Sequence record: PZ179880.1
Source of the DNA: a phage
DNA length: 64,000 nucleotides
Direction: 5' to 3' (one strand)
Part shown: positions 7,707-41,212 of the stretch, piece after piece
How positions within the stretch are numbered: position 1 is the first letter of the stretch
Layout: the number at the start of each line of letters is the position of its first letter
Translations under genes and position numbers: made by a program
Notes under the pieces: model-generated
The model's input: only the letters and a program-made list of their open reading frames with translations
What the model was told of the DNA's origin: nothing
Databases searched by the model: none

Positions 7707-7752
7707 ATAGATCTATTATATCATAATATTTGAAGATCTATCTTAAAGCATA
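7707..7752 (-). promoter_or_regulatory. Promoter region upstream of gene 55: extended -10 TGATATAAT flanked by an 8-bp inverted repeat, with a MotA-box-like TGCTT further upstream
   Basis: Inverted-repeat arms atagatct (7707-7714) and agatctat (7734-7741) bracket the -10; taTGCTTta lies upstream on the minus strand. Confidence 0.3.
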
Positions 7753-7763
7753 GAGGATATCAG

Positions 7764-8033
7764 TTATCTAAGTAAACAGTATGCTTGGAACACTTTCTCC
7801 ATCATCTTTTTAAATTCATGAATATCTATGTAATGACTAGTTAAATCAGCATGATATAAAAAGTCTAAAAACTTTTCATGTGTGCTAACATATTCGCTTT
7901 CATTTAATTCAGAAACATGGCTTTCCCAATATCCAACACCAGTCTTATTTGGGAAAAATGAAATTTTCATGTATTGGTCAACATAGAAAATTCCATAATT
8001 TTCAATAGTAATAGAAATATTAATAAATTTCAT
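7764..8033 (-). CDS. Hypothetical protein (89 aa)
   Basis: ORF, coupled to the downstream ORF. Confidence 0.45.
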   Translation of the reverse strand: MKFINISITIENYGIFYVDQYMKISFFPNKTGVGYWESHVSELNESEYVSTHEKFLDFLYHADLTSHYIDIHEFKKMMEKVFQAYCLLR

Positions 8034-8245
8034 ACATTCATCAACTTAGCCGCTTCGAGAGCTGCATCTAATGAATCAAATTGATCGACATATTCAATTA
8101 ATTCGCCATAATTAGCATATAACCACCATTGGCTAAATTCATACTCAAGGATGAATCCGTTTCCTTCAATTTGAGTTAAACCAATGCCATTTGTATTTAC
8201 TTCATATCCGGCAAGACGTAAATCGTTAATAAGAGCTTCGTTCAT
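8030..8245 (-). CDS. Hypothetical protein (71 aa)
   Basis: ORF with stop/start coupling. Confidence 0.45.
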   Translation of the reverse strand: MNEALINDLRLAGYEVNTNGIGLTQIEGNGFILEYEFSQWWLYANYGELIEYVDQFDSLDAALEAAKLMNV

Positions 8246-8247
8246 AA

Positions 8248-8574
8248 TTATACCTTAGTAATTTTCAGGTCTGCAAATTTTTTCTTACGTTGATTTTTCA
8301 TGCGACGAATAGTTTTATCGGAAATTTCATGCTTTTGATAAGCTTTAGATTCTACACCAAAAGCTTTAACATCAAATTCTGACAAGATATATTGAACCAA
8401 CAATTCACGGACAGTATTGCGTCCAATCTTCTGATCATTCTGTTTCATCGTCTGATGAAGCTCTTTTTCCCATTTATCCAAAATTTGAGGAGTTACAATA
8501 TCGCCTTTTTCTAGCAAAGAAACTACTTTATCATATGCGTAAGAATTGATGGCGTTTTTAATTTGAATAGTCAT
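8248..8574 (-). CDS. Hypothetical protein (108 aa), basic C-terminus
   Basis: ORF preceded by a hairpin at 8614-8625. Confidence 0.5.
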   Translation of the reverse strand: MTIQIKNAINSYAYDKVVSLLEKGDIVTPQILDKWEKELHQTMKQNDQKIGRNTVRELLVQYILSEFDVKAFGVESKAYQKHEISDKTIRRMKNQRKKKFADLKITKV

Positions 8575-8613
8575 ACATTATCCTCAATTACGTTAAAATT
8601 TTATTATCCAAAA

Positions 8614-8625
8614 AGGGCCGAAGCC
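8614..8625 (-). terminator. UUCG-tetraloop hairpin
   Basis: gggccgaagccc immediately after the stop of ORF 8627-8827. Confidence 0.45.
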
Positions 8626-8626
8626 C

Positions 8627-8827
8627 TTAGCTAAACTTTTTGGCACCCTTCCAGCCTTCGTACATCATTGCGACTGACAATGACAAAGCTCCTTCACATG
8701 CTGCATACTTATTATTCCAGAACCAATTTAGAAAAACTTCATCCTCAATACCATTGTGTTTCATGTTCTGGAAAAATTTGGCGCGTTCTTCAGCAATTCG
8801 CTGCGATAATTTAGATTCAGGATTCAT
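8627..8827 (-). CDS. Hypothetical protein (66 aa)
   Basis: ORF. Confidence 0.45.
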   Translation of the reverse strand: MNPESKLSQRIAEERAKFFQNMKHNGIEDEVFLNWFWNNKYAACEGALSLSVAMMYEGWKGAKKFS

Positions 8828-8968
8828 TTAAATTTCCCAATTACCATTTTCATCAATAAATTTAATCCAGTCATTTACTGACCATTTAGTTGTATCGCCT
8901 TTTGGAGTAGCATTTAAAGTATATAGCCCCCTTGCTTAAAAAGCATTCGTTTGATATTCATATTTTCC

Positions 8969-9307
8969 TCAGCTGTAACGATAGCACTCGTTTGATTTAC
9001 GTTTAGCAACTCGTTGAGAAATATTATAATCAAAATCATCGTCAATGTAAACTGATTTTTTCAACTTTCTTACTTCACCACGTAATTGACGATTCAATTC
9101 ATTCTTAACCTCTGAATCAACACCTCGCATACGTCGCCATTTATCTGAGCGAAAAATGTTTTCAACCATATCTTTATGACTTACACCATCAGGAGCTTTA
9201 CGCTTTCCGAAATAGTCATAATCACGTACTTTTAAATCTTTACGACGATACGTTTTACCCATGGAGTTTAATTTCCTTAGCAACTGAACTAAATACAGCA
9301 CGGTCAC
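8969..9307 (-). CDS. Hypothetical basic protein (start probably an internal Met)
   Basis: Lys/Arg-rich ORF. Confidence 0.4.
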   Translation of the reverse strand: MTVLYLVQLLRKLNSMGKTYRRKDLKVRDYDYFGKRKAPDGVSHKDMVENIFRSDKWRRMRGVDSEVKNELNRQLRGEVRKLKKSVYIDDDFDYNISQRVAKRKSNECYRYS

Positions 9308-9437
9308 AAATCATCTGTTTATGTAACTTAAGTATAAGATAATAAACTTCAAAACCGTTTACGTAAGTAACACGAACAACATTACCATTAATAAAATAAT
9401 ATTGTCCCTTTTTAATTTCTTTATCAACCACAACCAT
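9255..9437 (-). CDS. Hypothetical protein (60 aa)
   Basis: ORF directly downstream of an early promoter. Confidence 0.45.
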   Translation of the reverse strand: MVVVDKEIKKGQYYFINGNVVRVTYVNGFEVYYLILKLHKQMICDRAVFSSVAKEIKLHG

Positions 9438-9467
9438 ATCAAATCCTCAAAGGCAATTCATATGTTA

Positions 9468-9496
9468 ATAATACCATAGTTTGAACTTCTTGTAAA
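9468..9496 (-). promoter_or_regulatory. sigma70-type early promoter (TTTACA, 17 nt, TATTAT)
   Basis: Minus strand TGTTTACAagaagttcaaactatggTATTAT. Confidence 0.45.
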
Positions 9497-9578
9497 CAAC
9501 TTTGTGAAAATTATTTTAGGGAATGATAAGAAGGGAACGATAGCTTAGAATGGTAATATACAGAATGTGAGAAAGAAA

Positions 9579-39650: not shown

Positions 39651-39724
39651 TGGAGCGGATAATGAGAATCGAACTCACATCATCAGATTGGAAGTCTGAG
39701 GTAATACCATTATACGATATCCGC
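39651..39724 (-). tRNA. tRNA-Gly (anticodon UCC)
   Basis: Acceptor GCGGATA/TATCCGC, anticodon loop CTTCCAA. Confidence 0.85.
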
Positions 39725-39728
39725 AAAT

Positions 39729-39816
39729 TTGGTGCGAGAAGTGGGACTCGAACCCACAAGGAAATCATTCCGCAGCATTTTAAGTGCTGTGCCTTTACCA
39801 ATTTGGCCATTCTCGC
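39729..39816 (-). tRNA. tRNA-Leu (anticodon UAA), class II
   Basis: Acceptor GCGAGAA/TTCTCGC, D-arm TGGCCAAATTGGTAAAGGC, anticodon loop CTTAAAA, long variable arm. Confidence 0.85.
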
Positions 39817-39817
39817 G

Positions 39818-39890
39818 CTGGGAATAAAGGACTCGAACCTTTGCATCCTGGAATCAAAATCCAGTGCCTTACCAACTTGGCTAATTCCCA
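39818..39890 (-). tRNA. tRNA-Gln (anticodon UUG), U1-A72 first pair, no encoded CCA; abuts tRNA-Leu
   Basis: Acceptor TGGGAAT/ATTCCCA, D-arm GCCAAGTTGGTAAGGC, anticodon loop TTTTGAT. Confidence 0.8.
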
Positions 39891-39987
39891 ATTATTAACA
39901 AAGGCTCTTAAGCAAGAACCCTTGATGATAGAGGGTATTAATCAGTGCGATATGAGTTAATAATAACAAATAATTCTTAAAGCATAT

Positions 39988-40275
39988 TTACCATTTATAA
40001 TAATACATATTTACGATGCATTCAAGACCCAAAGGATTCTTGAAAATATCATATTCAAGAGGACCTTTTTCTGTTTCAATAAAGAAATCAAAATTTACTG
40101 TATTAAATTTACGTTCTTCCTTCACTAATTTAACTTGAGAAGATGAACGGTCAATGTAAACCTTTTCAACTTCAAAACATGTTAAAATGCCATAATCATC
40201 AATCAAAGCTTTAGCCGCGTCTTGATCATATTTATATCCATTTTCAATGGATGATACTTTCGCATAAAGAATCAT
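39988..40275 (-). CDS. Hypothetical protein (95 aa)
   Basis: ORF upstream of the tRNA operon. Confidence 0.5.
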   Translation of the reverse strand: MILYAKVSSIENGYKYDQDAAKALIDDYGILTCFEVEKVYIDRSSSQVKLVKEERKFNTVNFDFFIETEKGPLEYDIFKNPLGLECIVNMYYYKW

Positions 40276-40277
40276 TA

Positions 40278-40676
40278 TCAGCCTTCATCAACAATAGTGT
40301 GAGTATTAGCATTTACGATTTGCCACCAATCAAAGCGATTAGAATCCATCGGTTTGTTTTCATTTTCTTTGATAATGTCACGGAGTTCATCTTCAGAGAA
40401 TGCTTTAGCAATTAAATCGGTATACCCACCACGGGGATAATAATTATCACCTGCAAACAAAAGGAAATTTACCTTCCCGGAAGCAACATATGCTTCCTTA
40501 GGATACTTGTTTCCTGCGTGGTCAACCACTTCAATATAACGGTAAGGAATATCGGTTCTTTCAACCCATTGCCATGCCGCCGCAGGGGAATCGAAAGCAT
40601 CTACACCTAAACGATTATCTTCATCTTTAGACGGATTATTTTCGTAATCCGCATATACATAATATTCAACGTTCAT
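40278..40676 (-). CDS. Hypothetical protein (132 aa)
   Basis: ORF. Confidence 0.5.
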   Translation of the reverse strand: MNVEYYVYADYENNPSKDEDNRLGVDAFDSPAAAWQWVERTDIPYRYIEVVDHAGNKYPKEAYVASGKVNFLLFAGDNYYPRGGYTDLIAKAFSEDELRDIIKENENKPMDSNRFDWWQIVNANTHTIVDEG

Positions 40677-40861
40677 TATTCACCTTTAGAAATTTTATCC
40701 ATAACAATAGCAATTAAACCAATTAAAAATGCTACTACAAGTGAAAAAACATTTTCTGCCGTAGTCAATAATCCGCATATAAATCCAACAAACATTGAAA
40801 AACTGAAAGCGGAAGCAGAAATTGCAATAGCAACATTTCGAATTAATTCACAACGTTTCAT
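40676..40861 (-). CDS. Small membrane protein (61 aa)
   Basis: Two hydrophobic helices. Confidence 0.5.
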   Translation of the reverse strand: MKRCELIRNVAIAISASAFSFSMFVGFICGLLTTAENVFSLVVAFLIGLIAIVMDKISKGE

Positions 40862-40878
40862 TTTATTCTCCTCAGTAG

Positions 40879-40918
40879 TAGATAGGGTAATAGTATCACT
40901 ACCCTATCTAAAAGTAAA
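40879..40918 (-). promoter_or_regulatory. Early promoter (TTTACT, 17 nt, TACTAT) with an 11-bp inverted repeat bracketing the -10
   Basis: Arms tagatagggta (40879-40889) and taccctatcta (40900-40910). Confidence 0.45.
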
Positions 40919-40919
40919 C

Positions 40920-41153
40920 TTATTTTTTACGAAAAATTGATTTATTTTCTGCTGCCCATTTTTCAATAACTGCAGCAGGACCAGTAACAACAATTTTATC
41001 ACCGTAATCTTCTGCGGCGAGTTGACCGAAATTATCTAATGCATCACGAAGAACTCCATGAGGCATTTCACCCATTTTATCTTTCTTGCCAGTGTAAATA
41101 AACTCAACTTTTACATCAGCAGTTTCAGCAATAAATTCTTGGTAAGTTTTCAT
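40920..41153 (-). CDS. Internal-protein-like capsid-targeted protein (77 aa; IPI position)
   Basis: N-terminal MKTYQEFIAE capsid-targeting sequence; located upstream of 57B as ipI is in T4. Confidence 0.6.
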   Translation of the reverse strand: MKTYQEFIAETADVKVEFIYTGKKDKMGEMPHGVLRDALDNFGQLAAEDYGDKIVVTGPAAVIEKWAAENKSIFRKK

Positions 41154-41173
41154 TTTATTTTCCTAATTAATTT

Positions 41174-41212
41174 TGATGAGGTAATAATATCACTACCTCA
41201 TCAGTATGTAAA
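41174..41212 (-). promoter_or_regulatory. Early promoter (TTTACA, 17 nt, TATTAT) with a 10-bp inverted repeat bracketing the -10
   Basis: Arms tgatgaggta (41174-41183) and tacctcatca (41194-41203); same architecture as 40879-40918 with different arm sequence. Confidence 0.45.

Follow-up and report, generated by a model that had tools for sequence, protein, structure and literature searches.

Promoter-embedded stem-loops at accessory-gene borders of a T4-like phage are probably RNA hairpins on read-through transcripts

The window analyzed here is the whole 64,000-nucleotide stretch taken from phage sequence record PZ179880.1, and the subject of this report is a set of four promoters within it (sites 1 to 4) in which an inverted repeat surrounds or overlaps the -10 element. 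The window belongs to a T4-like phage of the genus Tequatrovirus; over positions 40000-42000, several Escherichia and Yersinia phages share 98.5% identity with it, and roughly 850 Tequatrovirus genomes have matches there. It aligns collinearly with T4 32-76 kb, without inversion, and its prereplicative/early genes run on the minus strand, so all four sites are to be read on that strand. Each site consists of a T4-type promoter with an AT-rich upstream region, placed between an upstream stop codon and the next Shine-Dalgarno/ATG. The makeup of sites 2 to 4 is that usual for T4 early promoters (GTTTAC, 17-bp spacer, extended -10, TAYTAT), and the related phage fPS-65 carries annotated predicted early promoters at places corresponding to the window sites; promoter features are absent from the T4 GenBank records. 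Site 1 is a middle promoter, P55 of T4, with its mapped start at T4 40180, 7 nucleotides (nt) after TATAAT. The first-pass annotation of this DNA, which had called all four promoters early, was therefore right for sites 2 to 4 and wrong for site 1.

At sites 1, 3, and 4, the promoter spacer holds one arm of the repeat, the loop holds the -10 hexamer, and the second arm spans approximately -6 to +4 (Table 1). The 8- to 11-bp repeats and the placement of the -10 in the loop that had been proposed for all four sites were recovered at these three. Site 2 departs from both descriptions. As DNA, its Watson-Crick pairing is limited to AGGGTA/TACCCT, which is 6 bp and not the 9 bp first reported. Folded as sense RNA, with the help of G·U pairs, the site gives a stem of 12 bp whose 3' arm includes the -10 hexamer. 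The 5' arm spans approximately -27 to -17 and the +1, whether mapped or predicted, falls inside the 3' arm, so that the resident promoter's own transcript is without the 5' arm. The 3' arm at the four sites stops approximately 7 to 21 nt short of the Shine-Dalgarno sequence, which is not sequestered.

Table 1. Stem-loop promoters and associated features in the window
Feature	Position	Strand	Details
Site 1: stem-loop around middle promoter P55, upstream of gene 55	7707-7741	-	ATAGATCT/AGATCTAT, perfect 8 bp, loop 19; 5' arm 7734-7741 (overlaps MotA-box region); 3' arm 7707-7714 (about -6 to +2); -10 TATAAT 7715-7720
Site 2: stem-loop in nrdC.10 early promoter	21556-21582	-	-35 21585-21590; -10 TACTAT 21562-21567
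Site 3: stem-loop in early promoter of trna.4 homologue	40879-40910	-	TAGATAGGGTA/TACCCTATCTA, perfect 11 bp, loop 10; -35 40913-40918; -10 TACTAT 40890-40895
Site 4: stem-loop in early promoter of internal protein (IP) gene	41174-41203	-	TGATGAGGTA/TACCTCATCA, perfect 10 bp, loop 10; -35 41207-41212; -10 TATTAT 41184-41189
e.7 early promoter stem-loop, same type	36986-37013	-	GGGCTCAT.../...ATGAGCC
denV early promoter, sister type	33329-33376	-	Spacer 5' arm TTCCTCCAAG pairs with Shine-Dalgarno region CTTGGAGGAA; 3' arm sequesters Shine-Dalgarno
regB early promoter, sister type	30225-30271	-	Spacer pairs with Shine-Dalgarno region; 3' arm sequesters Shine-Dalgarno
nrdC.8 early promoter, sister type	20096-20140	-	Spacer pairs with Shine-Dalgarno region, including two G·U pairs; 3' arm sequesters Shine-Dalgarno
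Accessory cassette of two open reading frames, missing from T4	21538-22030	-	About 490 bp; bounded by early promoters (-35 at 22070 and 21590)
IP gene, orthologue of PST IpVI, in place of T4 ipI	40920-41153	-	77 aa; cargo between sites 3 and 4

Perfect repeats with arms of at least 8 bp and loops of 3 to 30 nt numbered 66 in the window, compared to 43±6 in dinucleotide shuffles, so that a repeat of 8 bp carries little weight by itself. Arms of at least 10 bp were in excess (9 versus 3.3±1.8 in shuffled sequence), and three of these nine were on early promoters. When folded as sense RNA, sites 1 to 4 gave stems of 8, 12 (with G·U), 14, and 13 pairs and z-scores of -0.8, -4.6, -4.0, and -5.0, respectively, with folding free energies (dG) of -17.8, -18.5, and -17.4 for sites 2, 3, and 4. 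Sites 3 and 4 are far beyond chance, and site 1 is not significant alone but is supported by the conservation of its pairing. As we read the folds, a strong stem with the -10 in or beside the loop is present at 9 of the window's 16 early promoters. A search pattern in which only promoter elements were fixed and the arms were left free (GTTTACW-N13-GTGATAYTAT) yielded 102 distinct promoters from viral contigs, and repeats of at least 9 bp around the -10 were found in these 8 times, compared to 0.4 expected from re-paired halves. Among 110 promoters, pairing was confined to the register centered on the -10 core, with runs of at least 6 in 10 sequences versus 0 to 2 in other registers.

The proposal that the arms differ yet stay complementary was borne out when paralogous sites were compared, and again among orthologues from related phages. 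Three arm positions distinguish sites 3 and 4, and at each of them the opposite arm has changed so as to stay complementary; the arms of the T4 ipI promoter are the same as those of site 4. Across 11 distinct orthologous sequences, 83% of the cells of the P55 stem were paired, compared to 16 to 49% in slid registers; one P55 pair is A-T in the window, G·T in T4, G-C in eight sequences (including L166 and L168 of our set of related contigs), and A·C in L167. Orthologues of the e.7 promoter carry either ATGGGCTCAT/ATGAGCCCAT or ACAGGCTCAT/ATGAGCCTGT, a difference of two compensatory changes. The denV promoter arms are TCTCCTGTAG/CTACAGGAGA in T4, TTCCTCCAAG/CTTGGAGGAA in the window, and TTCTCCTGTAGATG/CATCTACAGGAGAA in L146, each complementary, and downstream of 57B unrelated arm pairs are found by lineage (TGATGAGGTA, AGGTCT, TAGGACTA, GTGTAGG, and TAGTGT). 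The arms thus covary at P55, e.7, and denV and downstream of 57B. T4 itself has the same design at ipI, ipII (13 bp), ipIII (8 bp), and trna.4. Since the arms diverge across promoters and lineages while staying complementary, selection appears to act on the pairing and not on a shared operator sequence, and the original inference of selection on pairing is supported. As a separate observation, the stem arms of the T4 ipII and ipIII promoters (L002, T4 65720-65830 and 66420-66500, minus strand) have the form TGTGA-N8-TCACA (AATTGTGA...TCACAATT) and resemble CRP half-sites with an 8-bp spacer; the ipII and ipIII genes are absent from the window.

Several comparisons point to a structure that forms in the sense RNA. 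In stems with at least 8 Watson-Crick pairs, G·T outnumbered A·C by 21 to 7 (p=0.0125; null G·T fraction of 0.48 from re-paired halves) when the arms were restricted to positions free of promoter consensus and G·T and A·C were treated alike, and this skew was weaker in poorer stems. An initial count of 42 to 22 was discarded because it was confounded by pairs that the promoter consensus dictates. The sense RNA of sites 2 to 4 was 2.5 to 3.8 kcal/mol more stable than the antisense. Folding of the two strands with the -10 core unmasked and the sequences unclustered gave z-scores of -1.85 for sense and -1.02 for antisense, but the raw energies did not bear this out after masking and clustering, and no weight is put on it here. 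Tetramers complementary to the Shine-Dalgarno sequence were found in 25 of 128 promoter spacers; shuffled spacers gave 10.1±2.8, and random sense windows had them at a rate of 4.4%.

The relationship between the stems and upstream terminators was examined over 135 promoter clusters, as only 2 of the 16 promoters of the window have an upstream terminator, which is too few. Stem length was 4.8 behind an intrinsic terminator and 6.3 without one (p=0.002), and stems of at least 7 were present at 2 of 18 terminator-preceded promoters versus 44 of 117 others (p=0.03). Shorter stems behind terminators are expected if the stem deals with read-through RNA. The terminator scan detected no terminator-like site at sites 3 and 4 or upstream of hairpin-bearing promoters. 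That the stems themselves are canonical Rho-independent terminators was ruled out by the lack of a U-tract, the sequence after the stems of sites 2 to 4 being A-rich. A literature search for a paper mapping T4 transcript ends found none.

A sister type of promoter, in which the spacer pairs with the Shine-Dalgarno region instead, is present in the window at denV, regB, and nrdC.8. As judged from these pairings, read-through RNA at the three genes would hide the ribosome site and promoter-proximal RNA would not. In distant T4-like genera (L169-L172, L192-L198, and L201), the 3' arm of the P55-equivalent stem covers the Shine-Dalgarno sequence (e.g., CCTCTCGCTTC ... GAAGCGAAGAGG), unlike the P55 of T4 relatives, where the stem is adjacent to the -10. 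A statement by Liebig and Rüger (1989) on pairing between promoter and ribosome site was not found in our literature search.

All four sites adjoin insertion or replacement breakpoints relative to T4, and the breaks in homology are located within the promoter cores. A 260-bp insertion (7759-8018) lies directly upstream of the P55 stem-loop and alters the end of the 55.1 region, and related contigs have two alternative configurations upstream of P55 that join approximately 10 nt upstream of TGCTTTA. Site 2 adjoins the downstream edge of the two-gene accessory cassette, and its homology break lies within the CTATCAA start box. This cassette was found in 137 of 540 matching phage records; T2 has other inserts at the same place, and fPS-65 annotates predicted early promoters on both of its flanks. 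The break in T4 homology at 40899 is the loop/arm junction of site 3. In phage PST, the gene order is 57B, ipV, ipVI, and tRNA.4, each separated by a stem-loop-type promoter, and the promoter between ipVI and tRNA.4 keeps its pairing solely through two G·U pairs. Tandem IP cassettes with chimeric promoters are present in L147 (6471-7200), L138 (6845-7600), and L095 (3489-3900); the left half of these promoters is like that of site 3 or the T4 trna.4 promoter, the right half is like the ipI promoter (site 4), and the arms are unpaired. Their makeup is consistent with the footprint of an exchange inside the -10 core, and comparison with relatives shows the conserved promoter core to be a probable patch of short homology for cassette exchange, deletion, and insertion between related phages. 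Because a crossover in the conserved core breaks the pairing, the stem seems to be kept for a reason other than recombination. In many related phages (L124, L129, L132-L135, L138, L140-L146, L148-L150, L155, L156, and L158, at approximately 6450), the first IP gene overlaps the 57B stop by TAAAATG or a similar sequence, with no promoter cassette in between.

Taken together, the four sites are probably promoter/stem-loop cassettes of the kind known as PeSLs (early promoters combined with stem-loops; PmSL-like, for the middle promoter P55) that most likely act as RNA hairpins on read-through transcripts. At each site, a strong T4-type promoter is packed into a gap of approximately 70 bp between genes. 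The weakly constrained promoter positions, the spacer (approximately -27 to -17) and positions -6 to +5, would carry the two hairpin arms, and we infer that the invariant extended -10/-10 core becomes the loop because these are the sole free positions. The hairpin would form as RNA, and only on transcripts reading through from upstream promoters, as transcripts from the resident promoter cannot form it for lack of the 5' arm. At denV, regB, and nrdC.8, the 3' arm is the Shine-Dalgarno sequence itself and the read-through RNA would for that reason go untranslated. In the four-site type, where the Shine-Dalgarno sequence is free, the hairpin would most likely attenuate the upstream message or mark its end, with a weak terminator, a pause, or a 3' stabilizer as candidate modes, and would in this way insulate each small accessory-gene cassette.

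A number of results weigh against this explanation. The stems of the four sites leave the Shine-Dalgarno sequence uncovered and have no U-tract, and experimental evidence of terminator function, from a lacZ reporter, concerns only the GC-rich RB49/phi1 stem (PMC2839356). Read-through across the four sites is itself inferred only from the lack of canonical terminators. The 21-to-7 count of G·T over A·C was made per unique stem and not per independent substitution on a tree, and an A·C intermediate (L167) is found at P55 besides the G·T one (T4). Once the -10 core was masked and the sequences were clustered, the raw folding energies of sense and antisense RNA were equal (-7.75 versus -7.84) and the z-scores alone differed. 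Finally, some promoters at the same loci are without complementary arms, so the stem is not obligatory.

The elements might instead operate in DNA as a recombination signal, a cruciform or single-stranded DNA fold that is cut or bound by endonuclease VII, the gp46/47 nuclease, or the like, with the resulting breaks at cassette borders driving shuffling as at integron attC sites, which keep their fold but not their sequence. Arms that vary while their pairing is kept, the breakpoints next to all four sites, and significant single-stranded DNA folds at sites 2 to 4 (dG of -8 to -9.3 and z-scores of -3.2 to -4.2) all fit this idea, and Arbiol et al. (2010, PMC2839356) likened PeSL cassettes to integrons and reported mini-circles. 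We nevertheless consider it unlikely: the crossovers map to the conserved loop or core and not to the arms and they destroy complementarity, as plain homologous exchange predicts, only the sense strand has the skew toward G·T over A·C, the depletion of stems behind terminators is unpredicted, and no integrase-like partner is known. Ranked just behind it, and likewise improbable, is the absence of any function. Intrastrand template switching at quasi-palindromes is a mechanism classically described in T4, and by perfecting such repeats it would mimic compensatory changes without selection, the products persisting at unconstrained promoter positions. The perfect Watson-Crick pairing of most stems, the equal raw energies of the two strands after masking, and the promoters that have no stem are what such a mutational by-product would look like; left unexplained are the higher frequency at promoters than elsewhere in the window, the single register, the pairing with the Shine-Dalgarno sequence in the sister promoters, the terminator-linked depletion, and the G·T skew.

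Both mechanisms that the first-pass annotation had offered fared worse. A promoter switch in the form of a supercoiling-sensitive cruciform, by which the -10 is either hidden or exposed, would suit the perfect 10- to 11-bp repeats centered on the -10 at sites 3 and 4. We judge it very unlikely, since the loops of 10 to 30 nt are unfavorable for extrusion, pairing at sites 1 and 2 and in many relatives relies on G·U, which exists only in sense RNA, or on short Watson-Crick arms, and the G·T/A·C asymmetry lies on the sense strand; T4 DNA is, moreover, linear with modified cytosines. An operator for a dimeric phage or host repressor, such as an unidentified factor for the shut-off of early promoters, would account for dyad symmetry that overlaps the -10, and the mechanism of early-promoter shut-off is not fully known. 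This possibility is excluded in practice because the arms within one genome are unrelated (ATAGATCT, TAGATAGGGTA, TGATGAGGTA, GGGCTCAT, TTCCTCCAAG, and others) and have no common half-site, while the loops and arm spacing vary from 6 to 30 nt. In addition, orthologous promoters change both arms freely and one of the four sites is a middle promoter.

Other features of the window were recorded alongside these. Its longest perfect repeat, of 13 bp with a loop of 14 (TTGCCACGTGTTT ... AAACACGTGGCAA, 33217-33256), is inside the denV coding sequence; at the same position, T4 denV presumably has only about 10 of 13 matches. Other perfect inverted repeats are at 18844-18897 (12 bp, loop 30), 2024-2070 (11 bp, loop 25), 57951-57976 (11 bp, loop 4), and 59498-59521 (10 bp, loop 4). 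An Rfam 15 scan of the window at gathering score returned 11 tRNA matches only and no other RNA family; the tRNA region (38876-39890) thus has eleven tRNA matches, compared to eight tRNAs annotated in T4. The interval 38504-39373 does not align with T4, which has segB at that place.

RNA hairpins on read-through transcripts, the explanation we favor for the four sites, might also represent something wider. We suggest tentatively, and with more doubt than confidence, that hairpins embedded in promoters serve T4-like phages as a general rule by which accessory-gene cassettes insulate themselves. Under such a rule, the untranscribed spacer would encode the 5' arm and the hairpin would neutralize read-through RNA by either of two solutions, covering the Shine-Dalgarno sequence or placing an attenuating or stabilizing stem just after the -10. 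Orthologous promoters seem to alternate between these solutions, as at P55 in T4 relatives versus distant genera. If the rule is true, cassettes would be expressed only from their own promoter and could be swapped without disturbing their neighbors. The PeSL literature proposes roles in termination and recombination, and a general insulation rule was not found there. The elements mark the joints where phages of the T4 family swap host-range and anti-defense genes, such as those for internal proteins, and their positions help in reading mosaic phage genomes. If they are RNA-level insulators, they would provide compact, portable parts for phage engineering and would help to explain how dense early genes with tandem strong promoters avoid runaway read-through.

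Among known systems, integron attC sites are also imperfect inverted repeats that bound cassettes and conserve their fold and not their sequence, an analogy drawn by Arbiol et al. (2010, PMC2839356). The elements described here differ from them in having no integrase and in crossovers that fall in the conserved loop or core, as for homologous exchange. A closer parallel is provided by T4 e, soc, 49, and I-TevI, where the 5' part of an RNA hairpin contains a promoter, only transcripts initiated upstream fold, and the hairpin-internal promoter gives the only translatable message (Uzan and Miller 2010, PMC3014915). The denV, regB, and nrdC.8 promoters of the window follow the same logic, with the Shine-Dalgarno sequence in the 3' arm. 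In contrast, the promoters of e, soc, 49, and I-TevI are late promoters with a sequestered Shine-Dalgarno/AUG, whereas the four sites are early or middle promoters whose 3' arm ends 7 to 21 nt before the Shine-Dalgarno sequence.

The nearest relatives are the flanks of IP genes in T-even phages and the PeSLs. According to Arbiol et al. (2010, PMC2839356), Repoila et al. (1994) reported T4 early promoters with AT-rich stem-loops at both IP loci. Sites 3 and 4 likewise flank an IP gene, in the IP locus between 57B and the tRNAs, each side of the open reading frame having a T4 early promoter with an AT-rich stem-loop, and IP content varies among T4, PST, and the window. Sites 1 and 2 lie outside the IP loci, and the 1994 geometry is taken here from later summaries (Arbiol et al. 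2010; Comeau et al. 2014). PeSLs, into which these promoters were later generalized, are strong early promoters with stem-loops that are concentrated in hyperplastic regions, next to insertions and deletions, and they include subclasses in which the stem sits between the -35 and -10 elements or overlaps the latter (Arbiol et al. 2010, PMC2839356). Comeau et al. (2014, PMC4122927) described the T4/PST consensus TTTACW-N17-TAYWAT and a middle-promoter version, the PmSL. The elements of the window differ from those published in several respects: the RB49/phi1 stems that were tested are GC-rich (G-run/loop/C-run) and those of the window are AT-richer with no U-tract; the legend of the PST figure places the stems just upstream of the promoter, whereas the window arms bracket the -10; and terminator function and mini-circles are reported in the PeSL literature and are not known for elements of the T4 type. 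In other respects, they agree. Both combine a sigma-70-type promoter with a stem-loop between an upstream stop codon and the Shine-Dalgarno/ATG, both are repeated in hyperplastic regions and adjoin insertions, deletions, and replacements between close relatives, and sites 2 to 4 match the T4/PST consensus. The feature, which the first-pass annotation had taken to be undescribed in T4 early promoters, is already described as PeSL/IP-locus elements (Repoila et al. 1994; Arbiol et al. 2010; Comeau et al. 2014).

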